A stretch of DNA of 62,828 nt, the filler included, from Candidatus Woesearchaeota archaeon (GTDB lineage: Archaea > Nanobdellota > Nanobdellia > Woesearchaeales > GCA-2687795): the NCBI GenBank assembly GCA_030753365.1. It is 7 parts of 7 records of this genome, joined end to end, with 100 filler letters (N's around TTAATTAATTAA, not from the genome) between each part and the next. Parts side by side here need not be neighbours in the genome. Positions count along the whole stretch, not along the records: positions 1 to 4,572 come from JASMCJ010000032.1; positions 4,673 to 7,942 come from JASMCJ010000033.1; positions 8,043 to 16,802 come from JASMCJ010000034.1; positions 16,903 to 26,254 come from JASMCJ010000035.1; positions 26,355 to 37,323 come from JASMCJ010000036.1; positions 37,424 to 45,406 come from JASMCJ010000037.1; 1 more part is not named here. One strand, written 5' to 3'. A model generated the notes under the pieces. That model saw only the letters and a program-made list of their open reading frames with translations. It did not search any database and was not told the origin of the DNA. Shown here piece by piece: positions 4,021-39,496 of this stretch. Position 1 is the stretch's first letter. Each line of letters opens with the position of its first letter. The position numbers and the translations under genes were made by a program.

Positions 4021-4144
4021 TTATCAAGAACCACTATGTTAAATAATGGTGGTTCTTGAGTATGCTCAGAATTTTCCAGCTTTCTGACATCAGAAGCAAG
4101 TGGAACTTGCCATTAATCAGATACTTGGTGGAAAATTCTGACAT
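4021..4144 (+). repeat. Double-hairpin dispersed repeat, copy 1
   Basis: TCAAGAACCAC..GTGGTTCTTGA-GTATGC-TCAGAATTTTCCA..TGGAAAATTCTGACAT; homologous to copies at 9689, 10070 and 39288. Confidence 0.9.
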
Positions 4145-4160
4145 GTCAAGAATAGGTGTT

Positions 4161-4572
4161 TTATTCTATTTTTAAACCAAATCTGATGATTATATCATTA
4201 TTTTCTACTTGGTCAGTGACTTGATTGTAGGTTAGAAGCTGGCTTTTGGTGTTTACGCAGAGCTTGAAGTTGGCTTGTTCTGAGTCTTGAGGAAGGTAGT
4301 CTTTGATTGATTTTAAAATGTTGTCCATTAGTAAAGGCCTGTCTCTTCTTGTGAAAGAATAGTTTATACTTATAGCTGAACTTAAAAGATTGCTTTTATG
4401 TATTAAAAAATCATATTTTAACTCAGGAGGAAGTATTACAGACCCTGCATCAAGATTAATGCTGGTTAGTAAATTGGTTTTGAGATTGTTTGCAAGTTCT
4501 TCACTGTCAGAATAAGGGTAATAATTTAGAAGCAACTTTTTATTGTTTTCTTCGTTGGCATTCAAATATATG
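4161..4572 (-). CDS. Hypothetical protein, 5' truncated by contig end
   Basis: Frame stays open into the linker; no recognisable motif. Confidence 0.6.
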
Positions 4573-4672
4573 NNNNNNNNNNNNNNNNNNNNNNNNNNNN
4601 NNNNNNNNNNNNNNNNTTAATTAATTAANNNNNNNNNNNNNNNNNNNNNNNNNNNNNNNNNNNNNNNNNNNN
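4573..4672. other. Artificial contig linker
   Basis: N44-TTAATTAATTAA-N44 (stops in all six frames). Confidence 0.98.
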
Positions 4673-5383
4673 ATAGCTCATATCAAACCTATAACTTCCA
4701 TCTTTCTTTATATCAATAACCTTCCTTAACTTACCATAATAATGATTCTTTTCTTTATCCCCCAATCCATAAGGGCTCAGCCCCATAACCTTGTACTCTG
4801 AATTATTCACGCTAAACCCCAAATAAGCAGTAATTGCAGAATACAGCAATCCAAGGGAATTAGGAAACTTAATCTCTTTCATTAGATGTATACCATTCCC
4901 TTCCCCAACACCATAAGCAGTAGTAGTCCACTCTCCCACACCATCAATCGTTACAATCGCAGCCTTTTCAAAAGGGCTTATAAAAAACGAGCTTGCCGCA
5001 TGAGCCATATGATGCTCTATAAACAATATATCTCCTTTATACCTTAACCCTTTTTTAACTGCTCTTGTAACCCTCAGTTTTTCATTAATCCATGAAGGAG
5101 TAGAGCTTAGGAACACTTTCAGGCTCTTAGGAAAAGTTTCTAAATGTTGGCTAAGCACCCTTTCAAACTTTAAGAAAGGCTTTTCATAATAACCCACATA
5201 ACCAACATCATTAATACTGATATTCTGGCTCTCCAGGCAATACTTCACCGCATTCACTGGAAAAGAAGTATCATGCTTCTTCCTTGTAAACCTCTCCTCC
5301 TGAGCAGCAGCTACCAAAACACCGTCCTTCAACAAAGCGGCAGACGAATCATGATAATAACAGCTTATTCCTAACACATACAT
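4673..5383 (-). CDS. Carbamoyltransferase (NodU/CmcH family), N-terminal part; 3' truncated
   Basis: MYVLGISCYYHDSSAALL..AAAQEERFTRKKH, EHHMAHAASSF, TIDGVGEW, EYKVMGLSPYG. Confidence 0.92.
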
Positions 5384-5394
5384 ATTTTTCAACC

Positions 5395-5646
5395 TCAAAA
5401 CTGCCTATAATATTCTTCAATAGGCTTCTTCTTCAGGTCCAAATCTGACCAATAACTATTTCTCTTCTCTGAAACCTTAGTATTCAGAAATCGCTTCCCT
5501 AAAATTTTTGCAAGCAATGATGTAAAACCCACTCCTATCACATAAACTGCCAACAACAAAACAGAATTAACAATAATGCTTACATTATGGCTAAACTTGC
5601 TTAACCCTTTCTTCACACCAATAAAAAACAGTTTCACTTTTTTCAT
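5395..5646 (-). CDS. SxtJ-like small membrane protein
   Basis: TM helix followed by ..SYW..EEYYRQF C-terminus, typical of proteins encoded next to carbamoyltransferases. Confidence 0.6.
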   Translation of the reverse strand: MKKVKLFFIGVKKGLSKFSHNVSIIVNSVLLLAVYVIGVGFTSLLAKILGKRFLNTKVSEKRNSYWSDLDLKKKPIEEYYRQF

Positions 5647-5852
5647 TTCAGAACTCTCTTAACAGCAGTTCCAACAAGAACAACCACTGTAGTAATTATC
5701 ATTATGTGAACATATGACCATGAAACAGGAATCCTTCTAAGAAAAAACAACACAAAATAAAGCACAGTTGTGAAAAGGAAATATCCTGCTATAAACCCTA
5801 CTTTCTCTCCAACATTTTGAATAGATTTATCCTGTTGTAGTATCATATACAC
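5643..5852 (-). CDS. Small two-TM membrane protein
   Basis: Two hydrophobic segments; ATGA overlap with the next gene. Confidence 0.65.
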   Translation of the reverse strand: MYMILQQDKSIQNVGEKVGFIAGYFLFTTVLYFVLFFLRRIPVSWSYVHIMIITTVVVLVGTAVKRVLK

Positions 5853-5992
5853 TAAGGAGAAAGGAAGGGCATTTATAAACTTTTTTAGCTTTTAGGCTTC
5901 ATACGCATTTCAGCAGGCAAACAGCCTATTTTACTGCTCTACCCCCTTAATTTAACAATCATTATATAAATATTTAACAAATTATTAAGCAA

Positions 5993-7087
5993 ATGAACGT
6001 ACTATTTATCACAAGAAAATACCCTCCTATGGTAGGAGGCATGGAAAAGCAAAATTATGAGCTCATAACCAACCTATCTTCACTGGTTAACAAGAGTCTT
6101 ATCGCTCTAAAAAAGTCTCAAATAAACCTCATATGGTTCCTACCCTATGCGCTAATCAAATCCATTTTTACAATAACAACAAAAAGGATAGACATCATCC
6201 ATTTAGGGGACGGTTTATTAGCTCCTATAGGTCTTATTCTCAAATTCATATTCAACAAAAAAGTGATAGTAACAGTACATGGGCTGGACATAACCCTTAA
6301 CAACAGATTCTACCAGTTAATCGTACTATCCAGTCTAAGAAAGCTTGATAAAATAATTTGTGTAAGCAACTCTACACGACACGAATGCTTAAAAAGAAAA
6401 GTAAACCCAAACAAATGCGTCTTTATTCCCAACGGAATAGAATCAGGCAGGCTCTCTCTCAAAACCAGCCGTGAAACACAAATCAAATCCATAGAAACTG
6501 AATTCAGAATTAACCTCAAAAACAAAAAAATCCTCCTTTCTGTAGGCAGGCTTGTCAAAAGAAAAGGCGTTTACTGGTTCATAGACAATGTCATGTCCAT
6601 GTTAGGCAATAACACCATACTCATAGTAGTAGGAGACGGGCCTGAAAAAGCAAGAATAGCCAGAATAGTAAACAAAAAAAAGCTTAAGGACAATGTCTTC
6701 TTACTAGGCAGGATTGAGGAAGATTCTCTCAAAAATCTCTACAACGCAGCTGACATATTTGTAATGCCCAACATCAAAGTCAAAGGCGACATGGAAGGCT
6801 TTGGAATCGTAGCAATCGAAGCAGCCTCTCTAGGCATACCAGTTGTAGCCTCAGGAATAGAAGGCATAAAAGATGCAATCCACAACGAAAAAAACGGCTA
6901 CTTAGTCAATCCCTACGATGCAAAAAGTTTTACTGACAAAATAAAATACATCTTTAAAAACGAAAAAAGAATGAAAAGTTTTAGTCTATCTTCAAAAAAA
7001 TTCACTCATGACAACTATGACTGGAAAAGAATAAATCAGCTTTATTATCAGGAATTCAAAAAAACACTAGGTGAAACCAAAAAATGA
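5993..7087 (+). CDS. Glycosyltransferase family 4
   Basis: YPPMVGGME, SVGRLVKRKG, EGFGIVAIEA. Confidence 0.93.
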   Translation: MNVLFITRKYPPMVGGMEKQNYELITNLSSLVNKSLIALKKSQINLIWFLPYALIKSIFTITTKRIDIIHLGDGLLAPIGLILKFIFNKKVIVTVHGLDITLNNRFYQLIVLSSLRKLDKIICVSNSTRHECLKRKVNPNKCVFIPNGIESGRLSLKTSRETQIKSIETEFRINLKNKKILLSVGRLVKRKGVYWFIDNVMSMLGNNTILIVVGDGPEKARIARIVNKKKLKDNVFLLGRIEEDSLKNLYNAADIFVMPNIKVKGDMEGFGIVAIEAASLGIPVVASGIEGIKDAIHNEKNGYLVNPYDAKSFTDKIKYIFKNEKRMKSFSLSSKKFTHDNYDWKRINQLYYQEFKKTLGETKK

Positions 7088-7942
7088 GAATATTCATCAT
7101 AACCACTTATCCAATCAAGCTGCCTTATGATGATGCAGCAAAAAACCTTGCAATTGGCTTAGTCAAAACTCTGAAAAATCACAAATTCACTCTCATTGGT
7201 TCAGGCAAGAACTTCTTAAAATCCCCTAATGTGAAATGGCTAACGCTCCCCTTTCCAAGAAAAAACGTTCAGGACATGCCCCTTCTGCAAAGAATCTTCA
7301 TCCTCCTAAACATAATCTTCTTTCAAATGCGCAGTACAGACATATTTCATTTCATAGTCACACCTGAACAACACTCTTCATCCCTCTTCAGGATAATATT
7401 CAGATTATTCAACAAGAAATCCGTTCAGACAGTCACATCAATCCACACCTTAGAAATAAAAAGGAAACACAAAAACCTAAGCAGCCTATTCTTCGCGGAC
7501 AAGGTCATCTGCCTGTCAAACTATTCAGAAAGTAGGCTAAAGAAAAAAGGAATCCATAATCTAAAAAGAATCTATCCAGGAGTTTCCTTAACAAGGTTTG
7601 ACCCTGAAACAGTTCAAATGAAAAACCTAAGGCAGGGAGCAAAGCATGTCATCATATATCCTGGTAATTATAAGCTAATTGACTCATGCTACAGCTTCAA
7701 CAAATTTTGTAAAATCATCAGTCTCACCTTAAAAGAGTTAGGCGATATAAGATTCATAATGGCCTGCAGGATAAGATCAACCATCGATATAAAGCTTGAG
7801 AAGAAATTTAAAAAGGTCGCCGCCTCATGGAACATACTAAACAACATAACCTTTCTAAATTCAGTTGAAAATATGCCATCCTTGCTCAACAGCTGCGACA
7901 TAGGAATCTATCCTTCAGAAAAAAGAATGACAAGCGTTCTTG
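7084..7942 (+). CDS. Glycosyltransferase (GT4-like), 3' truncated
   Basis: GT-B features (ADKVICLS, IYPGV, LLNSCDIGIYP); coupled to upstream GT4. Confidence 0.7.
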
Positions 7943-8042
7943 NNNNNNNNNNNNNNNNNNNNNNNNNNNNNNNNNNNNNNNNNNNNTTAATTAATTAANN
8001 NNNNNNNNNNNNNNNNNNNNNNNNNNNNNNNNNNNNNNNNNN
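7943..8042. other. Artificial contig linker
   Basis: N44-TTAATTAATTAA-N44. Confidence 0.98.
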
Positions 8043-8461
8043 CTATTACTTCTTTTGTGATAGGATTTATGGTAATTGCTTCTTCAAGGTTGGTTGAGAT
8101 TATAACGGACATTTCTTCACAGGTTGTTATATTGTTGATGCTTTCTATATTCTTTCTGTTGCTTGTTGGGTCGTTTTATAATGCTGAAGATTTCAAGGAT
8201 GGCGTGTTTTTGAATAAACCATGGAACATAATTTTTATGATAATTATGTTTATTGGGATTATTACAATATTTTTACAGGCTATTAAGACAAAAAGCGGAG
8301 AGAGTTGGCTTGAATGGTTCTGGAGATTTATGTCAACTCATTGGAGCAGCAAGGCTGTTGCTTCTGTTATACTTTTAGTGGTTATTATAGGGTTTATGTT
8401 TTATATAACTAAAGGTGAGAAGAAACCTAAATCATCAAAAAAGGAAAAAAAGGAGGATTAA
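8043..8461 (+). CDS. Multi-TM hypothetical membrane protein (5' truncated), paralog 1
   Basis: Hydrophobic helices resembling the next two ORFs. Confidence 0.8.
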
Positions 8462-8464
8462 AAA

Positions 8465-9046
8465 ATGGTGAGTTTTAAAGAGTTTTTTATAACATTAGAA
8501 GGGTGGGGTATGTTAGATGCTTTGTTGCCTTTTCTGTTGATATTTACTGTGATCTTTTCTATTTTGCAAAAGACTAAGGTGATTGGAGGAGATAAAAAGA
8601 ATATTCATGTGGTTATTGCATTGGTGATTTCATTGCTGGTTGTGATACCTCATGTTATGAACCCAGGAGGCCCTGCTGATGTTGTGAATATAATTAACCT
8701 AGCTATTCCACATGTTTCTGTGGTAATTGTAGCAATAATAATGTTACTGATATTAATAGGAGCTTTTGGCAAGGATATAGAGTTTATGGAGACAAGCCTT
8801 GCAGGATGGATTGCGATTGCTGCATTTGTTGCTATAATTTATATATTTGGAGCAGCTGCAGGATGGGGCTGGAAGATACCAAAGCTGTTTGAAGGCTGGC
8901 TGAATGATCAAACAATGTCTATTGTGTTGGTGATTCTTGCGTTTGGAATTGTGATATGGTGGATTACAAAGGAACCTAGGGATAAGAAGGATAAGATAGG
9001 GTTAGGGAATATTATTAAGAAAGTAGGAGACCTTGCCAAGAAATAA
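8465..9046 (+). CDS. Multi-TM hypothetical membrane protein, paralog 2
   Basis: LLPFLLIFTVIFSILQKTKVIG motif; GGAGG SD upstream. Confidence 0.85.
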   Translation: MVSFKEFFITLEGWGMLDALLPFLLIFTVIFSILQKTKVIGGDKKNIHVVIALVISLLVVIPHVMNPGGPADVVNIINLAIPHVSVVIVAIIMLLILIGAFGKDIEFMETSLAGWIAIAAFVAIIYIFGAAAGWGWKIPKLFEGWLNDQTMSIVLVILAFGIVIWWITKEPRDKKDKIGLGNIIKKVGDLAKK

Positions 9047-9048
9047 AA

Positions 9049-9627
9049 ATGGCTACACCTCTTGATGTGGGATTGGTAAAGCAGTTTTCTATTATTTTAC
9101 CTTTTCTTTTGACTTTTGTTATTGTTTATGGAAGCTTATTGTATACAAAGTCATTTGGAGAGAATAAAAGCTTGATAGGAGCGATTGCAGTGATAGCAGG
9201 TTTTGTTGTAATCATATCACCTACAATAAGAGAAATGATAGATACAATGGTTCCATGGTTTTTGTTTGTGTTTATTTTTATTTTCTTTAGCTTAATGGTG
9301 TTTAAAGTGTTTGGTGCTACAGATTCGGATGTGATGAGTCTGTTGCATGCGCGTGAGGGCAGAACTATTGTAACATGGTTTATTACAATCTCGGTTATAA
9401 TTGGGATTGGTTCTTTGTCATATGTTTTAGGGCAGAAAGGCGGCACGCCTTTTGGATATGATGAAGATGAAAATGTAATAGAAACCGGAGATCCAGGAGA
9501 TATAGGAACAAAGGGGAAAGGAGCTTTTTTTAGTACGCTTTTCCATCCAAAAGTTTTGGGAATAGTAGTAATATTCCTTATTGCAATGTTTACTATAATG
9601 AGGCTAACTTACTCTTATCAGGGTTAG
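9049..9627 (+). CDS. Multi-TM hypothetical membrane protein, paralog 3
   Basis: ILPFLLTFVIVYGSLLYTKSFG motif shared with paralog 2. Confidence 0.85.
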   Translation: MATPLDVGLVKQFSIILPFLLTFVIVYGSLLYTKSFGENKSLIGAIAVIAGFVVIISPTIREMIDTMVPWFLFVFIFIFFSLMVFKVFGATDSDVMSLLHAREGRTIVTWFITISVIIGIGSLSYVLGQKGGTPFGYDEDENVIETGDPGDIGTKGKGAFFSTLFHPKVLGIVVIFLIAMFTIMRLTYSYQG

Positions 9628-9642
9628 AAGCTCCAAAATGAA

Positions 9643-9658
9643 TAAAAACATTTATAAA
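9643..9658 (+). promoter_or_regulatory. Archaeal BRE/TATA promoter for the repeat + histone transcript
   Basis: AAAAACA-TTTATAAA about 30 bp upstream of repeat copy 2. Confidence 0.55.
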
Positions 9659-9688
9659 GTTTATACTTATCCTACTCTTTAAGAGTAC

Positions 9689-9822
9689 ATGTCAAGAACC
9701 ATCGTCATAGACCCGATGGAATGACCAGTGGTTCTTGAGCATGCTCAGAATTTTCCAACTATTTAAGTCAAAAGCAAGCGAAGCTTGCTACCAGTCAAAG
9801 ATTGGATGGAAAATTCTGACAT
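9689..9822 (+). repeat. Double-hairpin dispersed repeat, copy 2 (probable histone 5' leader)
   Basis: ATGTCAAGAACCAT..GTGGTTCTTGAGCATGCTCAGAATTTTCCA..GCAAGCGAAGCTTGC..TGGAAAATTCTGACAT. Confidence 0.92.
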
Positions 9823-9849
9823 TTTAAAAACGAAACAAGGTGATATAAA

Positions 9850-10026
9850 ATGGGAGAAGTTTTAGTTGTAGCAAGTAAAGTAAAGGATATAGTTAAGGGC
9901 GCAGGTTGCAATACCGGCGGAAATTTTGTTGGAGCTTTAAGCGCTAGTGTTGAGTCAATGATTAATAGAGCTGTTGAAAGAGCAAAAGGTAATGGCAGAA
10001 AGACTGTTCAAGCAAAGGACGCTTAA
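9850..10026 (+). CDS. Short histone-fold protein (alpha3-truncated, DUF1931 / Bd0055 / face-to-face type), 58 aa
   Basis: Below ORF-track cutoff. MGEVLVVASKVKDIVKGAGCNTGGNFVGALSASVESMINRAVERAKGNGRKTVQAKDA; histone-fold RAxxxGRKTVxxxD signature; AGGTGA SD; T-rich terminator after the stop. Confidence 0.9.
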   Translation: MGEVLVVASKVKDIVKGAGCNTGGNFVGALSASVESMINRAVERAKGNGRKTVQAKDA

Positions 10027-10069
10027 GATTATCTGAAGATATATTTTATTTTTTTCTTTTTCTGTTTTT

Positions 10070-10222
10070 TTGTCAAAAACCACCCTGCTAAAGCAAAGTG
10101 GCATGTTTGAAGCTATCTCACTTCAGAGTGGTTTTTGAGCATGCTCAGAAATATATCACTTTCCAAAACTATATGATGGATTTTGTCCACTAGTTTGGAA
10201 ACTAGTGGTATATTTCTGACAT
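10070..10222 (+). repeat. Double-hairpin dispersed repeat, copy 3 (diverged arms)
   Basis: TTGTCAAAAACCAC..GTGGTTTTTGAGCATGCTCAGAAATATATCACT..AGTGGTATATTTCTGACAT. Confidence 0.88.
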
Positions 10223-10267
10223 ATTAATAATGTTTAAATAGTTCTCTTTATTATTAGTTTTGTAAAC

Positions 10268-10352
10268 ACGGCAGTGGTCCAGTGGCAAGACATCACCCTC
10301 CCATTAATGTAGGTGAAAGGTGATTACCCGGGTTCAAATCCCGGCTGCCGTA
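10268..10352 (+). tRNA. tRNA-Gly(CCC) with 14-nt intron at 37/38 (10304-10317)
   Basis: Acceptor ACGGCAG/CTGCCGT, anticodon stem TCACC/GGTGA, loop CT-CCC-A|A, T arm CCGGG-TTCAAAT-CCCGG. Confidence 0.88.
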
Positions 10353-10391
10353 TTGAAAAATTTTATAAACTATTAAAATAGAATTAAGTAA

Positions 10392-10736
10392 ATGGCATTG
10401 AAACAGGTTATTTTGGTTAGGAAGGATTTAAAGTTACCAAAGGGAAAATTATCCGTTCAGGTAGCTCATGCTTCTACAGATTGCGCTTTGAATAGTGATA
10501 AGAAGGTTGTTGAAGAATGGAAATCATTGGGAATGAAGAAGGTTGCGCTTAAGGTGGAGAACCTTGATGAACTTTTGAAGCTTAAGAAGCAGGCTGAGAA
10601 GCTTGGATTGGTTAATTCTTTGATTAAGGATGCAGGGCATACGGTTGTTGAGCCTGGCACTATTACATGCTTAGGGATAGGGCCTGATGAGGAAGAGAAG
10701 ATTGATAAGGTTAGCGGAAGTTTGAAGTGCGTTTGA
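10392..10736 (+). CDS. pth2: Peptidyl-tRNA hydrolase 2
   Basis: KQVILVRKDLKLPKGKLSVQVAHAS, IKDAGHT..EPGTITCLGIGP. Confidence 0.96.
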   Translation: MALKQVILVRKDLKLPKGKLSVQVAHASTDCALNSDKKVVEEWKSLGMKKVALKVENLDELLKLKKQAEKLGLVNSLIKDAGHTVVEPGTITCLGIGPDEEEKIDKVSGSLKCV

Positions 10737-10774
10737 CTATAAGATTTATATAGAATTCTTGGTTTTTCTATAAT

Positions 10775-11566
10775 ATGATACTATTAAAAGCAGGTTTTTC
10801 AGGTGGTAGTCTTGGCAAGAATAAAGGTACTGAGAAGGCTCCTGATAAAGTGTTGGAAAGGGTTAAGAAGTTTTACCTTAATGAGAATGGTGTATTGCCG
10901 TTTTTTAATGTGAAGGATGTTAAAGTTGATGAAGGAAATATAGAGGAGACTAATGTTAATATTTTTAATGCTGTTAAGGGCTGCATGAAGGAGACTAACA
11001 AAGTTATGCTGCTGGGAGGTGACCATTCTATTACTTTTTCAGGATTTAAAGCTTTTGCTGAAGGGTTTGATAACCCTGGATTGGTTGTTTTTGATGCGCA
11101 TCCTGACTGTGTGAATAATTTTGAGCCGCCTACGCATGAGGATTATTTGAAGGTGCTTATAGAGAAAGGTGTCTTGAAGAAAGAGAATGTGATTATTGTA
11201 GGTTTAAGAAACTGGCATAAGGAAGAGTATGCTTTTCTTAAGCAGAATAGGATTAAATTTTATTCTATGAAGGAAATTTCTCAAGAGGGTGTTAGAGAGG
11301 TTAGTGAAGCAATTATGTCGGTTGCTAAGAATTTTGATGGTTTGTATGTTTCTATGGATATTGATGCTGTTGACCCAAGCTCTGCTCCAGGAACTGGGTA
11401 TATGGAGCCTGGAGGGTTGAGTTCAAGGGAGATATTGTATTTCCTTCATAGGCTGAAGTTGTTGAGAAACCTTAAGATGCTGGATTTGGTGGAGATTAAC
11501 CCTTTGAAGGATGTTAATGAGATGACAGTTAGTTTAGGGGCTAAACTTGTGGTAGAATCATGCTGA
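10775..11566 (+). CDS. Arginase/agmatinase family ureohydrolase
   Basis: GGDHS, FDAHPD, SMDIDAVDP..APGTG metal motifs. Confidence 0.92.
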   Translation: MILLKAGFSGGSLGKNKGTEKAPDKVLERVKKFYLNENGVLPFFNVKDVKVDEGNIEETNVNIFNAVKGCMKETNKVMLLGGDHSITFSGFKAFAEGFDNPGLVVFDAHPDCVNNFEPPTHEDYLKVLIEKGVLKKENVIIVGLRNWHKEEYAFLKQNRIKFYSMKEISQEGVREVSEAIMSVAKNFDGLYVSMDIDAVDPSSAPGTGYMEPGGLSSREILYFLHRLKLLRNLKMLDLVEINPLKDVNEMTVSLGAKLVVESC

Positions 11567-11626
11567 AAACAGGTTTTGTGCTAAAAAAGCATAATGTTTA
11601 TAAGTAATCTCTATATCTTGTTTAGT

Positions 11627-11815
11627 ATGGGAAGAATTAAAACAAAACTAATTAAGAGAATCACTCATAAGCTTGTTAAAGAGAATAAGGATGCTTTTAA
11701 AGGTGACTTTAAAGAGAATAAAGTACTTGTTAATGAGTTAGCTATTATCCATAGCAAGAAGATTAAAAATATTATTGCCGGATATGTAACAAGATTAACT
11801 AAAAGCAAGAAATAA
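11627..11815 (+). CDS. rps17e: 30S ribosomal protein eS17
   Basis: MGRIKTKLIKR..DFKENK..SKKIKNIIAGYVTR. Confidence 0.95.
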   Translation: MGRIKTKLIKRITHKLVKENKDAFKGDFKENKVLVNELAIIHSKKIKNIIAGYVTRLTKSKK

Positions 11816-11863
11816 AGCAAAACAACTTAGTATGTTTTGCTTAAAACAAGGAGGGTGAGAAAC

Positions 11864-12145
11864 ATGGCTGAAGACAATAGTATCTTTATTGGTGGGAAGC
11901 CGTTTATGAACTATGTAACCGCAGTTGTGATGCAGTTTACCACCAAGAATGCAGATGAAGTGATTGTGAAGGCAAGAGGGAAGTTTATCAGCAGAGCAGT
12001 TGATGTGGCTGAAGTGGCTTCTAAAAGATTTCTGGAGGAACAGGTTGGAGTTAAGGATATTAAGATTGACTCTGAAGGGTTCCAAAATAAGGAAGGAAGA
12101 GATGTTAGAGTTTCCTCAATAGAAATCTTTTTGAAACGAAATTAA
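11864..12145 (+). CDS. albA: DNA/RNA-binding protein Alba
   Basis: IFIGGKPFMNYV..VKARGKFISRAVDVAE..VSSIEI. Confidence 0.96.
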   Translation: MAEDNSIFIGGKPFMNYVTAVVMQFTTKNADEVIVKARGKFISRAVDVAEVASKRFLEEQVGVKDIKIDSEGFQNKEGRDVRVSSIEIFLKRN

Positions 12146-12432: not shown

Positions 12433-13353
12433 ATGAAGATGATTCAAAGAATACCAGAAACACCTTTAAGAGAAATAATGCTCGATGCACATGAAGTAGA
12501 AGTTAAATCTATTTATAGTATATCAAAAAATAAAAAACTGCATTATAATGAAGAATCAACACAGATTTGTGTGAATGGTGTTCCAATCTTTGATTGTTTA
12601 GCAGATATGTTATTTGATTCTGGTTTTGTTTCTGAAATTGCTCAACTTAGAACAGATAGAAGAAGAAAAATTATAGATGCACATTCTAAACCACAAGATT
12701 ACTCTCCAGAAGACTTATTTCATCTCCAGTTTGACTATGAATTATTAGCTATTGATCATTTAGTAAATACAGAATTGGTTGGTAGAATAGCAAGCAATCT
12801 AGATTCTAAAATTGATAGACACTATGCACAAAGATATTTTTTAACTTCATCATCAGGAAGGACTTTTTTTGAAGAAGTACTTCTAAAAGAATTTGAATCA
12901 TTAGGACATCAGTTATTGAGGTTAAATGGTTATTGTTCAGAGAAAGATTTCTTTTTTGAAGATAAAGGATTTCATTGTTTTCTAAAACATACAATGACTA
13001 GAGATAAACTAATAAGAATAATTTTGGACTATGATTCAGTTGTTTCAAGATTAAAAGAAAGATATGATTCCTTGTTAGAAGATAACCAACAGTTCGAATC
13101 TCCTTCAGAGGTATATGATAAAATTAAAGAAATTAGAGTTGAACAAATGAGATGAAGAGGAACATGGCGATTACTTTCTTCCAAATTAAGTTCTAAAGAG
13201 CAAACTTATATAGGTTTTGTAGGAAATGCACTCGATTTCAATGAAGACAATAGGCTTTTGAGGAGCATTAGTTTTTATTATGTTATGGAAGACAAACAAA
13301 TTGGAGAGAGATTCTACGAATTAATTGAATCTAGAAAAAATGGCAACAGATAA
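12433..13353 (+). pseudogene. Hypothetical protein interrupted by in-frame TGA at 13153-13155
   Basis: Frame stays open 65 codons past the TGA (RGTWRLLSS..ESRKNGNR) to TAA at 13351-13353, overlapping the next start codon. Confidence 0.6.
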
Positions 13354-30055: not shown

Positions 30056-30058
30056 AAA

Positions 30059-31330: not shown

Positions 31331-31470
31331 GGGCTCATAGCTCAGCCTGGTTAGAGCGATCGCCTCTTAAAATCAAGGTTTCTTTGATTTACTCAGAAAT
31401 CCTTAATTTCAGACAGCGATAGGTCGCGGGTTCGAATTATTGAAGAATAACGAAAGTCCCGTTGGGCCCA
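31331..31470 (+). tRNA. tRNA-Lys(CTT) with two introns: 37/38 (31370-31414) and T-loop 59/60 (31437-31456)
   Basis: Acceptor GGGCTCA/TGGGCCC, anticodon stem ATCGC/GCGAT, loop CT-CTT-A|A. T-loop BHB TTCG/CGAA restores TTCGAAT. First intron junction is only a relaxed BHB. Confidence 0.82.
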
Positions 31471-31643: not shown

Positions 31644-31653
31644 TTTTCTTATC

Positions 31654-31755
31654 AATAAAAAATCCCAATCGCAGCAAGCTGCGGGGTATTTTTAGTATTT
31701 AGTTTGCGTATTAAGCCGATGCAAGCATCGGGGTATAAAACCCAAACTAAATAAT
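31654..31755. mobile_element. 102-bp palindromic non-autonomous element, copy B
   Basis: Identical to 24068-24169. Confidence 0.75.
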
Positions 31756-31777
31756 CAAAAAACCTAAGAATCTAAGC

Positions 31778-32797
31778 TTATTCTTTCAATCTTTTCTTAA
31801 AATCTTCAACAGCTTTAACTGGTGTAGGATCCACTTTATATTTCAAAGCTAAATAATACGATGCCCAATCACCTATATAGATTGCAGAAAAAATCTTTGT
31901 TAAAGTACTACTTCCTTTAAGCATTATCTCCGTTACAGGAATTCCTTTCTTCTTTATAATGTCCTTAGTTATCTCAAACCTTTTCTTAACTCTCATATGA
32001 TCATCTTCGTCTTTTACAAGTATAACATGATAATCTCCTTCTATAGTTGTATACCCTACCATTTCATTATGGTTCAATTCAGGAAACATATTGCAGAAAG
32101 CATGCACTTTACTGTTCTCATTAAAGTTTATCTTCCATTTGTAAGCAACAGCAAACATCCTGTCAGAAGAATAAATTAAAGGTATCTTTCCCTCAAGCTT
32201 TCTTGCTATCTCTTTTGCCCTTTCCTCAAAGATAGGCTTCTTCAGAATATTCATAGTCATTTCTATTTCATGTGACATATCACCTATTATCTTTGAGTTC
32301 ATAAGCACATTCAGTATAGGAAAAAACAGGTAAGCATAGCCAGACCTTGGTTGTATACCTGAAGGAACTTTAATAAATATCTGCCTTTGCTTTGTGCTAA
32401 GCTCTTCCAATTTCCCGCCAGAGCTAATAGCAACGATTCTTGCTCCTTTTCTTAAGGCATTTCTGTATGCATAGATTGTCTCTTCTGTATTGCCTGAATA
32501 AGATATCACAAACACTAATGATCTCATATTAGTAAATTCAGGCAAAGTATAACCCTTGTTGACAAATATAGGAATACTTGTAGAATAAAAAAATGATTTA
32601 AGTATCTCCCCTGGAAGCGCTGATCCTCCCATGCCAGTGATTATGATATTATCAATTTTATCAGTAATCTTAACATCTTTTCCTAACTTGGCAGCTTCCT
32701 GCATCTGCTTAGGAAAATTCTTAAGAACGCCATACATATCCTCTTTATCAATAGTTTCTATGTCAAATTCTTCTTCTTGTTCTTCCATTTCTTCCAT
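31778..32797 (-). CDS. Bifunctional phosphoglucose/phosphomannose isomerase
   Basis: GMGGSA, SYSGNTEET, NENSK, FPELNHNE, DPTPV. Confidence 0.93.
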   Translation of the reverse strand: MEEMEEQEEEFDIETIDKEDMYGVLKNFPKQMQEAAKLGKDVKITDKIDNIIITGMGGSALPGEILKSFFYSTSIPIFVNKGYTLPEFTNMRSLVFVISYSGNTEETIYAYRNALRKGARIVAISSGGKLEELSTKQRQIFIKVPSGIQPRSGYAYLFFPILNVLMNSKIIGDMSHEIEMTMNILKKPIFEERAKEIARKLEGKIPLIYSSDRMFAVAYKWKINFNENSKVHAFCNMFPELNHNEMVGYTTIEGDYHVILVKDEDDHMRVKKRFEITKDIIKKKGIPVTEIMLKGSSTLTKIFSAIYIGDWASYYLALKYKVDPTPVKAVEDFKKRLKE

Positions 32798-32861
32798 TTT
32801 AAAATAGTGAATGAGATAACCTATTTAATATTTTCTAATTATTGACTCAACCTCAATAATC

Positions 32862-34283
32862 TTAATATCTATAATGTTCTGCCTTATAAGGCCCTTCAAC
32901 CTTAACACCTATATATTCTGCCTGCTCAGGGCTTAGTTTAGTCAGCTTAGCTCCTAATTTAGCCAAGTGCAGCCTTGCAACCTCTTCATCTAATTCCTTT
33001 GATAGCATAGAAACTCCTAGTTTATGCTCCTTTGTCCACAAGTCTATCTGTGCAAGTGTCTGGTTTGTGAACGAATTGCTCATCACAAAGCTTGGATGGC
33101 CTGTTGCGCAGCCTAAATTAATCAGCCTTCCTTCAGCAAGGAGATAAATTGAATGCCCATCTTCAAAAGTATACCTGTGTACTGGACATTCGCTGCCTTT
33201 AATCTCTTCTTTCTTAATCCCTGGCCAGTTCTCCAGTTCAACAACCTGTATTTCATTATCAAAATGCCCAATATTGCATACAATAGCCTGGTCTTTCATC
33301 TTGCTCATATGCTCTGCTGTTATAATCTCTTTATTTCCTGTTGTTGTAACATATAAATCAGCTTCAGGCAAAGCATCTTCCACAGTGCATACTTTAATAC
33401 CTGCCATGCACGCCTGCAATGCGCAGATAGGATCAACCTCAGATACCATAACTCTTGCTTTCTCATTTTTCAAAGATTCCGCTGAACCTTTACCAACATC
33501 CCCATAACCGCAAACCATTGCAGTCTTGCCTGATAAAAGAACATCCATTGCTCTCTTAATGCCATCAACCAAACTATGCCTGCAGCCATACACATTATCA
33601 AACTTAGATTTGGTTACAGAATCATTAACATTGACAGCAGGGAACAACAATTTTCCTTCTTCCATCATCTGATAAAGCCTATGGACACCGGTTGTTGTTT
33701 CTTCAGAAACTCCTTTAATCTCTTTTGCAACCTTCTGCCATCTTTCTTCATCTTTATTGTACTCTTCTTTAAGGCAGGCCATTAACTCTCTAAAATCTTC
33801 TCCTTCATCGCTATAATCCTTATTCAATAAAGAAGACTCTTTTTCAATATCAACTCCCTTATGTACCATTAAAGTAGCATCTCCGCCATCATCAACAATT
33901 AGGTTAGGCCCTTTGCCATCTCCAAAGTTAAGCGCTTTTTCTGTGCACCACCAATAATCTTTAAGACTTTCTCCTTTCCACGCAAAAACAGGCACACCAG
34001 ATTTAGCTATTGCTGCCGCAGCATGATCCTGTGTTGAGAATATGTTGCACGAAGCCCATCTGACATCAGCTCCTAATTCAGTTAATGTTTCTATAAGAAC
34101 TGCAGTTTGTATTGTCATATGTAAAGAGCCTGTTATCCTTGCGCCTTTCAGCGGCTTGTCTTTTCCATACTTTTTCCTTGTAGCCATTAGGCCAGGCATT
34201 TCTTTTTCTGCTATTTCTATCTCTTTCCTTCCAAAGTCTGCAAGATTGATATCTTTTACTTTATAATTTTCAGTTTCATCCAT
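32862..34283 (-). CDS. ahcY: Adenosylhomocysteinase
   Basis: [45 protein letters not shown] end. Confidence 0.98.
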
Positions 34284-34358
34284 TTTAGTATCACCTTTAT
34301 GTTTATTAAAAAAGTTAATCTGATAACATTTATATATTCTTTTTCAAATAAACAGTAA

Positions 34359-34419
34359 TTTGTCCATTAATTTCAGAATAGTTTGGACAAAATAGATATA
34401 TTTAAATAATAATTGGACA
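34359..34419. promoter_or_regulatory. Candidate operator between divergent ahcY and Lrp genes
   Basis: TTTGTCCA (34359) and TGGACAAA (34384) inverted pair plus a third TGGACA at 34414. Confidence 0.35.
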
Positions 34420-34430
34420 TACATTAACAA

Positions 34431-34850
34431 ATGCTCTCTAAAAAAGACCAAAAGATAATAAGCGTACTAAAAGAGGATTCAAGAAAATCCATTAGAGACA
34501 TTGCCAAGCTGACAAAGTTAAGGCCATCCACTGTTCATTTAAGGCTTCAAAAGCTGAAGAAAGAAGGTATTATAGAAAAGTTCACAGTAAAGTTAGACAA
34601 CAAAGCAGTAGACGAGAACTTCATAGTGTTCTTATTCGTAACAACAGAGGATAATCTTTCCAAAGTTTTCCTCAACACTCCAAACATAAAAGAGGTGTTT
34701 GGCATAACAGGAGAATACGACTTACTGTTAAAGCTAAAGTTCAAAGATATTGAAGAGTTCAACAAATTCCTCATAAACCTCAGAAAGAACAAGAACATCA
34801 GGAAGACATTAACAATGGTAAGCACTGTTAATGTTAAAGAAGAGGCATAA
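34431..34850 (+). CDS. Lrp/AsnC family transcriptional regulator
   Basis: HTH (DSRKSIRDIAK..STVHLRLQKL..GII) and RAM domain (ITGEYDLLLK). Confidence 0.93.
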   Translation: MLSKKDQKIISVLKEDSRKSIRDIAKLTKLRPSTVHLRLQKLKKEGIIEKFTVKLDNKAVDENFIVFLFVTTEDNLSKVFLNTPNIKEVFGITGEYDLLLKLKFKDIEEFNKFLINLRKNKNIRKTLTMVSTVNVKEEA

Positions 34851-34852
34851 TT

Positions 34853-35204
34853 TTATTTAATCCTGTCTAACCCATCAAATTTTGGAGTTTTATCATTAGG
34901 ATCAAACACATCAACAACTTTATATTTACCTCTTGTAAACATTTCTTTTCCTTCTAAAAAATGAGTGGCTTCTAATATAATTACGCTTGCAATAGGTTTC
35001 CCCAATACTTGATTGCCTTTTGTTTCTCTTAGAGGAATCTCTCCAAACAACCAATAATTTCTTTGGTCTTTCTTCAAGAAATCAAAGACTTTTCCAGCTT
35101 CGAGATTTTTAGGAATACATTCTTCTTCTTTTCTGTTTCCCTTTTCAAACTCAGAATAATCTCTCAATGCTAAATCCGGATTAAATTCAAACTACTATGC
35201 CCAT
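34853..35204 (-). pseudogene. Conserved hypothetical protein with apparent +1 frameshift near the start (35189-35191)
   Basis: ATG GGC ATA GTA GTT T GAA TTT AAT CCG: removing one T gives MGIVVEFNPDLALRDYSEF.., with the ATG 1 nt after the upstream stop. Confidence 0.6.
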
Positions 35205-35205
35205 T

Positions 35206-35631
35206 TTATTTCACCTTGCTTAAATCTTTGTTTATGATAACATCAACCAATGCTTTTACTTCGTCAACATAGGGAACTTCTTCAGGAATTGGATTTAATA
35301 AAAATATCTTTTTATCATTAACATGAGCAAAACCCATTTCTAGTAATACATTTCCACCTATATAATTCTCAATTCCATCTTTATCAAAATTACAGACAAG
35401 TAATGCATCACCGCTTTTTATTAAATCATGCCATGCCTTAAAGATATCGTATTTTCTTTTCATTGCACCATGATCTTCTGCAATGTCTTTAATCAAATCT
35501 TTTGCAGAACCATCAGCAATTCCAAACATATGATCATGCATTAATGGTTCATGGCCTAGCTCTCTTATTTTTTTTGATATTTCTATTATTTCTTTGGCAA
35601 ATTTTAAACTTCCAACAATAGTTATTTTCAT
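35206..35631 (-). CDS. Nucleoside 2-deoxyribosyltransferase-like fold protein
   Basis: KITIVGS, IKSGDALLVCN..YIGGNVLLEMGFA..KKIFLLN. Confidence 0.6.
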   Translation of the reverse strand: MKITIVGSLKFAKEIIEISKKIRELGHEPLMHDHMFGIADGSAKDLIKDIAEDHGAMKRKYDIFKAWHDLIKSGDALLVCNFDKDGIENYIGGNVLLEMGFAHVNDKKIFLLNPIPEEVPYVDEVKALVDVIINKDLSKVK

Positions 35632-36203
35632 TTTTCAAACTCTTTAAGCATTTCAACCATTACTTCTAATGGAATGCCTCTTGTGAAGTTATTATAGCTC
35701 CCTTCAATTTTCTTAACAAAAGTTGAGCTGTAATAGCTTAAAGGGTCATATCCTAAAGCATAAATATTGAAATTAGGGTCTTGCTCAAGATATTTATTTA
35801 TTTCTGGCTCTGTTAATTCCCTCATAAAAAGTTCTGTTTTTATAACTCTTGAAATGCTTTTGCCTGTAGCAGTGTCAATCATGAAAATCCCAGTATAAAA
35901 TAGATGATTATTTCAGGATAATAATTTTAATCTATTAAATGCTTCTTCCTTTGAGCTTGGCTTTTCTAATATTTCATTATTAAACCATCCAATGGAATCA
36001 AAACCAATAACAATTCCTTCAGAATGGTTTTTTGCAACAGATTCCGCTTTTAATTGGGCTAAATGCTTCACTAATTCCTTTGGATTATCAGGTCTTCCAT
36101 CAAAATATTCATCAACATTGCTACCTTCTGCAATAAAATCTAGACCAAGAAATTTAAATGCTTCTTGCCTACAAAGTGATTTAGTAGCTAAAACAATTTT
36201 CAT
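35628..36203 (-). pseudogene. maf: Maf family nucleotide pyrophosphatase with in-frame TGA at 35913-35915
   Basis: IVLATKS..R, LAQLKAESV, IGFDS, LEKP, then LKLLS*NNHLFYTG (canonical LSGxxHxVxTG), IEGSYNN..GIP, all in one frame. Confidence 0.85.
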
Positions 36204-36949
36204 TTTATTTTAGGTATCATATTAACAATTAACTCTGTAACCTTCTCAACATTTGCTTTGAATATTTCAAGCACACCTTCCCAGGTTACAGGCTCTTCAT
36301 CCTCTTTCCAACAGTCATAATCTGTTGACATAGCAACAGCAGCATAAGGAATCCTTGCTTCATTTGCAAGAGCAGCTTCAGGAGCAACGCTCATATTAAT
36401 CACATCAGCTCCCCAGATTCTGAACATATTAGATTCTGCTTTAGTAGAAAACCTAGGACCTTCAATCGTGATTACTGTTCCTTTCTCATGTATAAAAAGA
36501 TTAAGCTCTTTTGCAGTTTTAATTAATAAATTTCTCATATCCTTTGAGAAAGGCTCAGCCATTGGCGTATGAACAGGCTTATCCGGCTCAAACTTTTCAT
36601 GAAACGATATTTGCCTATGCCTTGTAAAGTCTATAAATTGGTCAAGTATAACTAAATGCCCTCTATCAATCTCTTCCCTCAAGCTCCCGCATGCTGTAGT
36701 AGCTAATATATGCGTGCAGCCAGCGTCTTTCAAAGCCTGAATATTCGCTCTAAAATTAACCTGCGTTGGCGGGATTGTATGTCCTCTCCCATGCCTTGCA
36801 ATAAGAACAACATCAATATCTTTTATCTTACCAACCTTAAGAGAAGAACTTGGCTTGCCATAAGGTGTATCAACTTCTACGTCCTTTGCATCTTCAAGAA
36901 TATCAGGATTATCTAATCCAGATCCACCAATTATACCTATTTTTACCAT
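36200..36949 (-). CDS. mtnP: S-methyl-5'-thioadenosine phosphorylase
   Basis: IGIIGGSG, ARHGRGH, IEGPRFSTKAES, INMS..PEA, TDYDCW. Confidence 0.95.
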   Translation of the reverse strand: MVKIGIIGGSGLDNPDILEDAKDVEVDTPYGKPSSSLKVGKIKDIDVVLIARHGRGHTIPPTQVNFRANIQALKDAGCTHILATTACGSLREEIDRGHLVILDQFIDFTRHRQISFHEKFEPDKPVHTPMAEPFSKDMRNLLIKTAKELNLFIHEKGTVITIEGPRFSTKAESNMFRIWGADVINMSVAPEAALANEARIPYAAVAMSTDYDCWKEDEEPVTWEGVLEIFKANVEKVTELIVNMIPKIK

Positions 36950-36993
36950 TCTTATAATTAGTAACTCTTCTTTCTTTTAAGAAATTTGCTTTT

Positions 36994-37323
36994 TTAAAGC
37001 TCCTTCTTCACAGCCTTATCAGAGATTATAGCAGAATTCCCAGATTTATCTTCTATGATAATCTTAATTTTTTCCTGACCCCAAAGCACTTTATTAACCT
37101 TCTTCAACAATTTCTTAGCTTTTTTCTTAGCTGCAGGATCATCTTCAGCTTCTTTTGCAATCTCTATAGCCGCTTTAACTCTATTCAGAACCCCTTCAAC
37201 ATTAGTAATATACCCATTAGAGCTTGGACCAGGCTCAATTGTCATTACATGAGGTATTTTTACTTTTCCTTCGCTTGACTTAACAACCCTTACTTTCAGG
37301 TCATCTTCTGATTCAACCTCTAT
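36994..37323 (-). CDS. ZPR1 zinc-finger family protein, C-terminal part (5' truncated)
   Basis: DDLKVRVVKSSEGKVKIP..IEPGP...GYITNVEGVL..IIEDKSGNSAI. Confidence 0.85.
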   Translation of the reverse strand: MEVESEDDLKVRVVKSSEGKVKIPHVMTIEPGPSSNGYITNVEGVLNRVKAAIEIAKEAEDDPAAKKKAKKLLKKVNKVLWGQEKIKIIIEDKSGNSAIISDKAVKKEL

Positions 37324-37423
37324 NNNNNNNNNNNNNNNNNNNNNNNNNNNNNNNNNNNNNNNNNNNNTTAATTAATTAANNNNNNNNNNNNNNNNNNNNN
37401 NNNNNNNNNNNNNNNNNNNNNNN
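37324..37423. other. Artificial contig linker
   Basis: N44-TTAATTAATTAA-N44. Confidence 0.98.
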
Positions 37424-39496
37424 AATCCATTCTATATAATCAATTAAACTGTTATTGTTAGTATCAAACTTATCAATATCAACCTCCTGCCTTGAACCAT
37501 TCACAAGCCAGTAAAGTCTTACGGCATTCTCTTCAGCCTCAACAGGAAGTTCAGTATAACTCAATATATCCTCATAATGAATATCAGATGAAACAACAAT
37601 CCTCTTCTTATAATCAGAAACAATAATTTCTTCAGCAGTTGGCCCTTCTGTATAATATTCAACCTCAACCTCTTCAACCACTTCTTCAATAATAATCTCT
37701 GTAACATTCTCTTCTTCACTTGAAGCTAATCCTATTACAGCCCCAGTAATAAAATTCCTTTCTTTAGGCTTTCTCTTATCCTTTTTCTCAGTCTCATACT
37801 CCTCCAATCCTTTAACCCTATTATCCTCAACAACCTTAATCTTTGATTCATCCACTTTAACATTAGTTGTAACATCCTTCACAGAAATATTGAATGCTCC
37901 CTTAGTAACATTAACCTTAGCAACACCCTTAACTTGCTTAACCCTCTTCACCCACTTAACAGGCTTTCCAATCACAACCTTAGGTTTAACCTCAATAACC
38001 TCTGCCTCACCGACACTAACCTTAAATACATTACTAACCCCAACAAGAGAAGAATCATTAGCAATAAAGAACATGCTTCTAACTCCAACTAATTCTGAAG
38101 CAGAAATAACAGCAATATCATCATCAATCTCAACAGAAATCCCTTCAGTCTCATAATAAGAATAAGCTAAAACATCGCCGTCATCATCAAAGAAATACTT
38201 GCTTAAATTAATAGTATAATTATCAACAATACTAACGTCAGAAATATTTTTAACCAATTTAGGAGCATTATTCACAACATTCTCATTCCCTACAGTATAA
38301 GAAACGCTCTCAATCTCCAATGTACCATTCTCCACTTCAAAAATAAGAAAATAACTGGAAGCATTAAGGCCTGGCAGCAGGCAGGTTTCCAAACAGAAAT
38401 CGTTAATCTCAGTTTTGGGGGTTGAGAACTTCACGTTCTTGTTGGAAACTCCGCTGTAAGCCACCTCTGCCTCCAGTTTTTTAAAATCGTAATAAGCATA
38501 AACAATCTGCGCAGAAATTATATTCTCATACCCTGCACCATTCATCTCAAAATAACTATAATAAACATCATCCCACTTAGAAGAATCACTCTCTAATCCA
38601 ATAAAAGAACAACAATTATTACTTCCATAACAAACATGATCAACACTTCCTTCATCAACATCATTAACAGTCCATCTTGTGCATAAATTGCTTAAGTTAA
38701 CATCAAAGTTAAATTCAGTATCCTTCACAGTTAAGTCAACAATACCATCAATAGTTTCAACACCATCATTGTTAGTATCATAGTTGCTTTCATTATAATA
38801 ATCTAAAACCAACTTTATTGACAAGTCCTCTACTGATGTATTAACTAATGTTTCATTCAAAACTGTTAAGTTTTGAATGTGCTCAGAAATGTTAATTTCT
38901 GACATGTTCACTATAACCTGCTCTGCTAACGTTCCATTAACCTCTGTTTGATTAGTCTCATTAACACTCTCATTCAAGACAGCAAACCCAGTAACACCAG
39001 CCAACCCATTTTCTTCTTGAGAAGAATCAAACACAAGATAATCAACATCATTATGCCTCAGATAAACTTTAGCAAAACCATCACCTGAAAACCTTGCATC
39101 AATACTAACCCTCTTCAAGTCCCCTTCATTCATCAAAGACCATGAATAACTGCTTGATTCATTCACTTCCAATCCTAAATACTCTGTATAATTATTCATC
39201 TCAGACACACTAATATAACCAGTAAAAGCAGGCTTAATAAAAAGGACAACAAGCGCTAGCATAGCTAATACAAAGGCCACTACAAAAATGTCAGAATTTA
39301 ATCTCCAGTTTCTGACTGGTGGCAAGCTCCGCTTGCTTTTGATGTCAGAAAGCTGGAAAATTCTGAGCATGCTCAAGAACCACCTTGATGGATGGGATGG
39401 TAACTCGTAGGAATTGCCACATTCCACCCGTCTATGATAGGTGATTCTTGACATCTCTAATATCCTAATTCCTCTTTTGCCTTTACTTCTTTTCAT
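37424..39496 (-). CDS. Large acidic secreted/surface protein (3' truncated) with an in-frame repeat insertion in its N-terminus
   Basis: GAGGAG SD; basic N-terminus, TM helix and xTG motifs; many N-x-S/T sequons; cadherin/Ig-like segment (NNAPKL..INLSKYFFDDDGDVLAYS). Confidence 0.85.
39288..39454 (-). repeat. Double-hairpin dispersed repeat, copy 4 (intragenic, in-frame)
   Basis: Minus strand ATGTCAAGAATCACC..GGTGGTTCTTGAGCATGCTCAGAATTTTCCAG..AAATTCTGACAT. Confidence 0.92.

Follow-up and report, generated by a model that had tools for sequence, protein, structure and literature searches.

Probable small mobile repeats built on a conserved double hairpin in one Woesearchaeota-type order of DPANN archaea

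Here we describe a family of short repeats found in a 62,828-nt stretch of DNA (the window) from a Candidatus Woesearchaeota archaeon (GCA_030753365.1; hereafter G000; 0.897 Mb in 78 contigs, seven of which were N-joined to give the window; GC 35.8%). The constant unit of the family is a double hairpin of 50-57 bp, TGTCA-stem1-TGAGCA/TGCTCA-stem2-TGACA (the slash marks the centre), with pseudo-twofold symmetry. With a probability of about 0.72, we interpret it as gene-less, non-autonomous mobile DNA, that is, a small mobile repeat (SMR), of one Woesearchaeota-type order of DPANN archaea. A structure-conserved mobile element had already been proposed from the sequence alone (henceforth the sequence-only reading), and this proposal is borne out by covariation in the stems and by exact empty sites, with no known published family to which the repeat could be assigned.

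Anatomy of the element and its copies in the window

The sequence-only reading placed four copies at 4021-4144, 9689-9822, 10070-10222 and 39288-39454. All four are present and follow a single plan, namely, TGTCA, hairpin 1 (foot A-R-AAC / GTT-Y-T), the palindrome TGAGCA/TGCTCA, hairpin 2 (foot GAA / TTC) and TGACA. The limits first given to them, ATGTCA..TGACAT, were one to two bases too wide: TGTCA..TGACA is correct, but the outer A and T belong to the flank. Exact limits were set by comparison with empty sites together with the family alignment; no more than 30 of 82 copies have A at -1, and base +1, although T in 80 of 83, is target DNA. The tally of four was itself too low, as the window also holds a diverged copy, an element-like insert and a truncated hairpin. 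A covariance model of the family, trained on minimal (50-57 nt) relatives, was used to find diverged copies. The copies and related units in the window are the following:

4022..4143, + strand: copy 1, 122 nt; short hairpin 1; type A hairpin 2 (arm GGAAAATTC)
4144..4167, + strand: truncated hairpin 1-like unit (TGTCAAGAATA..TATTCT), head to tail with the end of copy 1 (TGACA/TGTCA)
9690..9821, + strand: copy 2, 132 nt; type A hairpin 2; 3' flank TTTTAA
10071..10221, + strand: copy 3, 151 nt; type B hairpin 2 (arm GGTATATTTC); 3' flank TATTAA
31371..31415, + strand: element-like insert, 45 nt, in a tRNA-Lys(CUU)-like gene; 24 bits, E = 0.0003 in the window
38854..38904, + strand: diverged minimal copy, 51 nt; 43.6 bits with the family model; within the same open reading frame (ORF) as copy 4
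39289..39453, - strand: copy 4, 165 nt (55 codons), in frame in a long ORF

Copy 1 has a degenerate 5' end (TATCA) and one mismatch at its centre (TGAGTATGCTCA), and the likeness of the 31371-31415 insert to the element is strongest in hairpin 2. The exact 12-nt palindrome, TGAGCATGCTCA, occurs three times in the window, and once more with one mismatch; by simple arithmetic, about 0.008 occurrences of an exact 12-mer would be expected by chance in 2 x 62.8 kb. Across the family, 83 copies underlie our counts of flanks, strands and orientation, 111-112 those of flank information and of length modulo three, and 18 minimal members the covariation analysis. With few exceptions, the 83 copies end in the inverted repeats TGTCA and TGACA.

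Large forms, of 120-173 bp, carry extra branched inserts in both loops, as the window copies do. In other genomes the same core is found as a bare double hairpin of 50-57 nt with loops of only 3-5 nt, so that the large window copies can be understood as minimal units whose loops gained hairpin modules. Tiny hairpins of the form GAAAATC-loop-GATTTTC or AGAAATC-loop-GATTTCT also recur, singly or in runs, in the loops of large copies (loci L022, L187 and L213; contigs C39:14599-14771 and C56:~7430-7716 of G000), and look as if a still smaller unit were multiplying inside them.

Exact insertion without target duplication

Gain and loss of the element involve the precise block TGTCA..TGACA and no target duplication. 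A genome of the same genus, G001, served as the reference for orthologous sites, and aligning its empty sites with the occupied ones of G000, a check that the sequence-only reading had called for, defined the ends at two base-exact sites. First, at the locus of copy 4, G001 reads ..CTACAAAAA joined directly to TCTCTGA.., where G000 has a 165-nt block, the limits being ambiguous by one A in this alignment. Second, on contig C65, G000 has a 163-nt block where G001 reads ..GTTGCAAT joined directly to CATTAAAA.. Neither block is accompanied by a duplication, and each is precisely TGTCA..TGACA. At the C65 copy, the flank has an unusual C at +1 that is already present in the empty site, which identifies the flank as target rather than element. 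A third site (C28) is empty in G001 but diverged, and is therefore approximate only, whereas copy 2 is absent from its orthologous place in a region that could not be aligned base for base. The loci on C8, C39, C47 and C69 yielded no further empty sites, being rearranged or occupied by other genes in G001. At the place of copy 3 (equivalent to window 10027-10267), G001 has a 321-aa LAGLIDADG_3 ORF instead (L036:1902-2867, contig C33), which runs into the 5' end of the tRNA-Gly gene.

Units are also found joined to and nested within one another. Relatives have head-to-tail arrays (TGACA/TGTCA) and cases of one unit inside the loop of another, and in G001 an extra 60-nt two-hairpin insert lies exactly at the centre of the copy orthologous to 38854-38904.

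Most copies are intergenic. Copy 1 is located upstream of an RPA-like gene (2811-3953, - strand), copy 2 lies 28 nt before the start of a 58-aa ORF, and copy 3 is placed between this ORF and tRNA-Gly. Copy 4, on the other hand, follows codon 14 of a 691-aa (contig-truncated) ORF on the same strand, which starts at 39496, and contributes 55 codons without a stop; the ribosome-binding site and start codon upstream of it are conserved in the insert-free G001. In four other marine metagenome runs, contigs join copy 4 to both of its flanks, so that it is not an assembly artefact, and depth, about 5 in the flanks, reaches 34-52 at the core in three of these runs and 12.6 in the fourth, which fits a multi-copy repeat. 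Public unitig-type contigs break at the element core (window 39340-39376, four metagenome runs), with depth 7-10x that of the flanks in three. On C65, the copy stands in for the final 10 codons of a 76-aa ORF. Overall, copies show no tendency to keep the frame, given that lengths modulo three are distributed 44/42/26 among 112 copies, and most copies have stops in every frame.

A one-sided target and a base within the element that predicts it

Insertion takes place immediately 5' of T-W-T-Y-A-A, the other flank being unconstrained. This 3' flank consensus carries 1.66 bits at +1 and 1.35 at +3, while no position of the 5' flank exceeds 0.49 bits (111-112 copies).

In large forms, the base X of the hairpin 2 arm GG-X-A, two bases outside the conserved inner CCAC/GTGG foot of this hairpin, predicts target base +2. 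Of 29 copies with the arm GGTA, 28 have A at +2; of 27 with GGAA, 2 have A and 23 have T at this position (Fisher p = 2e-12). The flanks of all 56 copies are unrelated, and each copy thus represents an independent insertion. The association also holds among subtypes that differ only at X, namely, GGTAAGTTTC with TAT (3/3) against GGAAAGTTTC with TTT (4/4), and GGTATTC with TAT (3/5) against GGAATTC with TTT (5/6). Both X subtypes coexist in single genomes, each with its own target. In one exception, a type B copy, X is mutated and the flank is still TAT, which would look like a change of X after insertion. One explanation for the rule may be that the flank T-X'-T-Y pairs with the arm G-G-X-A through four pairs (A-T, X-X', G-T and G-Y).

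Fold and covariation

In the DNA fold of minimum energy, the termini are each paired to one half of the centre, with one base bulged out of each hairpin (G in hairpin 1, C in hairpin 2), as the sequence-only reading had described when it paired the termini with the half-centres around one extrahelical base. The alternative fold that it also drew cannot be separated from this one by covariation, since the core columns are invariant. Owing to the pseudo-twofold symmetry, the reverse strand folds into the same architecture. For copies 1 and 2, on both strands, fold z-scores range from -6.2 to -7.3, and none of 200 shuffles was as good.

The compensatory changes first noticed in the stems of the window copies were confirmed on the 18 minimal members, where 98.2% of cells are paired and 8 of 22 pairs have changed on both sides. 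Doubly changed cells number 28, against 5.9 in shuffled alignments (0/500 shuffles reach 28), and slid controls are 24-47% paired. In addition, the copy at 38854-38904 has an ortholog in G001 in which one stem 2 pair has passed from T-A to C-G, both sides having changed. Two further features attributed to the stems and loops did not generalise. The preference of G-T wobbles for one strand fails over 83 copies, where fold energies favour the top strand in 38 and the bottom in 39 with RNA parameters (p = 0.62), and the top in 42 and the bottom in 33 with DNA parameters (p = 0.38). The GNA inner triloop is indeed found in type A hairpins of this genome, but relatives have AAA.

Family size, types and distribution

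Further copies, which the sequence-only reading had proposed to seek in this and other DPANN genomes, are numerous, with a patchy distribution within one archaeal order. G000 has 11 full copies, on C8, C28, C32, C34 (two), C37, C39, C47, C59, C65 and C69, a twelfth with an insert on C56, and, in addition, copies with internal deletions, hairpin 1 units on their own and mini hairpins. Its hairpin 2 is of two types, A (inner stem GCAAGC-GNA-GCTTGC) and B, distinguished by the arms listed above; relatives have more types, combined freely with hairpin 1 types.

We used the 16-mer core as a probe for distribution, allowing up to one mismatch in 61 related genomes and requiring an exact match in 301 high-quality genomes. 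First, the core was found in 16 of the 61 related genomes, the richest of which hold 42, 34, 23, 18 and 12 copies; it is not found in the same-genus G001, and a reversed-pattern control gave no match in any of the 61. Second, the exact 16-mer was matched in 24 of the 218 same-order genomes, and in none of the 83 that belong to other orders. Third, in 596 Gb of species-representative genomes, at least 121 loci are among the matches listed, and 56 of these have both hairpins and both ends. Among the matches listed, 43 full-architecture loci carry a title, and 42 of these are DPANN or archaeal (Woesearchaeota, Nanoarchaeia/Nanoarchaeota, Pacearchaeota, Aenigmatarchaeota, 'uncultured Methanosarcinales' and 'archaeon'), the one bacterial case being chance-looking. 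The remaining listed loci, including the other bacterial ones, are bare 16-mers, as chance would give at that database size. None of 18 16-mer matches in IMG/VR shows the architecture of the element.

The sequence-only reading had not recognised the family, in agreement with our searches of Rfam and of the full-text literature. [quoted passage not shown] The part of that survey consulted reports one Woesearchaea genome with 105 MITEs per Mb (PMC11602168).

A second repeat family shares hairpin 1 (TGTCAAAAACC..GGTTTTTGAGCA) and then continues with CACAAAATTCC.. in place of the palindrome and hairpin 2. It is found in G000 at C61:~12740-12813, C63:6086, C22:747 and C39:7103, and at L240 (G001 C21) and L225 (G038 C5). 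G001 thus carries this second family, though, by the 16-mer core, it is without the element studied here.

Neighbouring genes and an element-like insert in a tRNA gene

The tRNA-Lys(CUU)-like gene at 31331-31470 is missed by ARAGORN and by the Rfam tRNA model. It has the 45-nt element-like insert after its anticodon loop, where this probably acts as an intron, and an insert of about 20 nt in its T-loop. Rfam detects only three tRNAs in the window, and RF00005 gives just 13 matches in the whole genome, 11 of them over the gathering score, so that many tRNA genes are probably hidden by inserts.

The 58-aa ORF between copies 2 and 3 (window 9850-10026) has a strong ribosome-binding site and about 87% DNA identity with G001, and it matches no Pfam family. 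Finally, a two-gene cassette, encoding a protein that starts M..ERIVTIPRMGFYTD followed by an ATPase that by eye resembles acetate and sugar kinases, occurs at L001 (G000 C47:2931-6311), directly downstream of an IS200-type tnpA; it also adjoins the C65 empty site in G001 (L239, C3:8500-11900), and seems to have moved between the two species.

The search for an enzyme and the points against mobility

No cognate enzyme was seen in the window by the sequence-only reading, and this stands; searches for Y1, TnpB and tyrosine recombinase genes found none elsewhere either. The enzymes of REP/RAYT and IS200/IS605 systems, which had been named as candidates, are not supported, as the Y1 genes examined are without these ends (0 of 11 loci) and Y1 genes are missing from several high-copy genomes. 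The element motif is not near any of the three PF01797 matches in G000, and TnpB is absent from this genome. As to an autonomous copy, no obvious transposase was present among the ORFs between neighbouring copies in three (G038, G010 and G144) of six such regions retrieved, where no Pfam scan was made. The enzyme is probably not a Y1 transposase found in these genomes.

Several observations weigh against our interpretation of the family as mobile DNA. First, there is the absence of an enzyme itself. None of 11 Y1_Tnp loci examined in nine genomes carries the element core; PF01797 (Y1_Tnp) has matches in 5 of the 16 genomes with the element and in 10 of the 45 without it; and no Y1 match at E up to 5 was obtained in G010, G050, G058 and G204, four of the five high-copy genomes re-searched, which are 91, 95, 63 and 95% complete, respectively. 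This Y1 negative is weakened by gaps in metagenome-assembled genomes (MAGs), as many Y1 matches lie at contig ends. Second, no single active strand is visible, the energies of the two being equal and predicted G-T pairs numbering 217 on the top and 179 on the bottom. Third, minimal copies with identical hairpin 2 adjoin TAT, TTT or TAA; these lack the GG-X-A arm and show no rule, so that the guide rule is shown only for large forms. Fourth, copies within one genome differ by about 15% or more, and activity may therefore be old. Fifth, contigs of the four metagenome DNA runs contain no empty allele at the copy 4 locus. Lastly, the geometry is not that of IS608: here the hairpin feet extend right to the termini, these are inverted repeats, and the guide that we propose is part of a stem.

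Alternative explanations

Both the centre of the element, TGAG-CATG-CTCA, and the circular or tandem unit-to-unit junction, TGA-CATG-TCA, are perfect dyads around CATG, as would be expected if a site-specific recombinase (tyrosine or serine, possibly of a housekeeping Xer type) moved the element by acting on these dyads and integrated it beside sequences like its own start, TGTCAA. Indeed, the target T-W-T-Y-A-A resembles these first six bases in the manner of an imperfect core repeat, the mixing of hairpin types across the centre and the solo hairpins would fit exchange at this point, and 52 of the 61 related genomes have tyrosine recombinase genes. However, the base that predicts the target is found 10-13 nt inward from the end, where no crossover could plausibly take place; a usual att or dif site would be less degenerate than these targets; and the numbers of extra tyrosine recombinases or integrases do not follow copy number (G038 1, G010 2, G002 0, G058 0). 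We therefore regard this explanation as unlikely.

The strong covariation and very stable folds could also have been those of structured small RNA genes, or of cis-regulatory RNAs or terminators, kept for the benefit of the host. Many copies do lie 20-60 nt upstream of start codons or at most 20 nt from stop codons, and the orthologous copy in G001 kept its pairing through a double change. Nonetheless, orientation with respect to neighbouring genes is random (13/15/13/16, for the 57 of 83 copies with both neighbours), no promoter was seen at a fixed distance upstream of the copies, both strands fold equally well, and copies are found inside ORFs and inside each other. Moreover, presence differs between genomes of the same genus, distribution across families is patchy, and Rfam gives no match. 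A host function of this kind is thus very improbable, and the regulatory role that the sequence-only reading had kept beside mobility is not supported, given the random orientation, the lack of a promoter at fixed distance and the copies missing from orthologous same-genus sites. No RNA dataset is listed for window 38600-39700, with which expression might have been followed.

More specific candidates of the same kind were also discarded. A promoter-carrying element was considered in view of TATA-like AT-rich runs in or after hairpin 2, but orientation is random. A bulge-helix-bulge intron, which the tRNA splicing endonuclease might cut out of RNA and which would account for copies within genes, was rejected on anatomy, as the feet have 1-nt bulges rather than the 3-4-3 arrangement, and also because covariation links the flank to hairpin 2 instead of to the 5' end, the part that would have to be the partner of the 3' exon. 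C/D box and H/ACA RNAs and ribozymes gave no fit by eye to their general consensus motifs, and none in Rfam.

Finally, the termini TGTCA(A)GAA and TTCTGACA are short inverted repeats of the TG..CA type, yet a conventional MITE, shortened from a DDE-type insertion sequence that had such ends, is scarcely credible in the light of two base-exact empty sites without target duplication, a target conserved on one side only, and no transposase-like ORF among the ORFs listed in three inter-copy regions (without a family-library scan).

Comparison with known systems

With mobile DNA as the preferred interpretation, the closest described archaeal analogue is SMR-A of Haloquadratum walsbyi, of about 110 bp, whose mobilisation was termed 'enigmatic' (PMC3119063). 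The likeness is one of description rather than of membership; in these terms, the new family appears to work like SMR-A. Both are archaeal, too short to encode a transposase, and have prominent terminal inverted repeats unrelated to known transposons; both are without target duplication, strongly prefer particular targets and are often inserted in palindromes that belong to other repeats. In contrast to SMR-A as described there, the present element has a 12-nt central palindrome, a 50-nt minimal form, a one-sided T-W-T-Y-A-A target and a base that covaries with the target, and it comes from a different phylum and habitat.

A second likeness is with IS200/IS605 elements and palindrome-associated transposable elements (PATEs), which also have hairpins at both ends, no target duplication and a short, one-sided target. 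In IS608, with the left cleavage sequence (CL) TTAC and the left guide sequence (GL) AAAG, the target is read by pairing with the guide beside the hairpin foot and can be reprogrammed through GL, according to the parts of the sources used here (PMC3201880, PMC5934647); in our family, the target may likewise be read by pairing with element DNA beside a hairpin foot. The lack of duplication, the one-sided target and the target base specified by the element together form a single-strand signature of IS200/IS605 type. The family is nevertheless no member of this group, since its hairpins extend to the very ends, its termini are inverted repeats and no link to Y1 was seen: none of the Y1 genes at 11 loci has these ends, Y1 is absent from 4 of 5 re-searched high-copy genomes, and TnpB from G000. 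PATEs and IS605-type elements are defined, in the portion of the source consulted, as having no terminal inverted repeats (PMC3119063), and the repeat described here, which has them, falls outside the definition of a PATE. In sum, and by analogy, we think that the element works like an IS200/IS605-type substrate without being one of these elements. Of the earlier proposal, a mobile or regulatory element acted on as single-stranded nucleic acid, mobility and structure dependence are supported, and a single-strand type of substrate is supported indirectly, but the regulatory half is not.

Other systems resemble the family in fewer respects. Like repetitive extragenic palindromic (REP) sequences and their BIME and REPIN arrangements, it consists of short, dispersed, paired imperfect palindromes, multi-copy, mostly intergenic and in either orientation, whose structure is kept over sequence; unlike them, it is archaeal, and no RAYT gene flanked by the repeats was found among the Y1 loci examined, nor do Y1 genes and the element co-occur across the 61 related genomes. 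REP elements have a conserved 5' tetranucleotide, which is not seen in this family. As with Rickettsia palindromic elements, judged by their general features, one window copy and one minimal copy are in frame without a stop, but there is no bias towards multiples of three, most copies contain stops, and most are intergenic. Compared with integron attC sites, which have R and L boxes and lie in cassette arrays beside an integron integrase, the copies are dispersed singly, the window has no integrase, and integrase counts are unrelated to copy number.

A possible mechanism and its implications

Taken as mobile DNA, the family is selfish DNA of a known general kind with an apparently undescribed architecture. 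The element's own DNA may recognise the target through base pairing, much as in the 'peel and paste' single-strand transposition of IS200/IS605, and the hairpins may be handles for protein binding, which would account for stems that stay paired as their sequence changes. It is tempting to speculate, although only tentatively, that an undescribed archaeal transposition system lies behind the family, with an enzyme that would be neither a Y1 HUH transposase, nor a TnpB partner, nor a known DDE transposase; with a target set in cis by one or more bases of a hairpin arm; and with precise excision, or tolerance of the insert, that would also seed tRNA introns and in-frame insertions.

DPANN archaea with small genomes are thought of as streamlined. 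Yet in one order, a genome on the megabase scale can contain dozens of these repeats, which occupy spacers, genes and, apparently, a tRNA gene. They also break the assemblies of MAGs, and are thus one reason for fragmented MAGs, and they hide tRNA genes from standard callers. The family represents one of very few hints as to how archaeal small mobile repeats move without target duplication, a question open since the repeats of Haloquadratum were called 'enigmatic' in the description cited above (PMC3119063), and the one-base link between element and target provides a concrete, testable handle on it. If targeting were truly guided by DNA and carried out by a new enzyme, the principle of reprogrammable integration known from IS200/IS605 would be extended to a new protein family.

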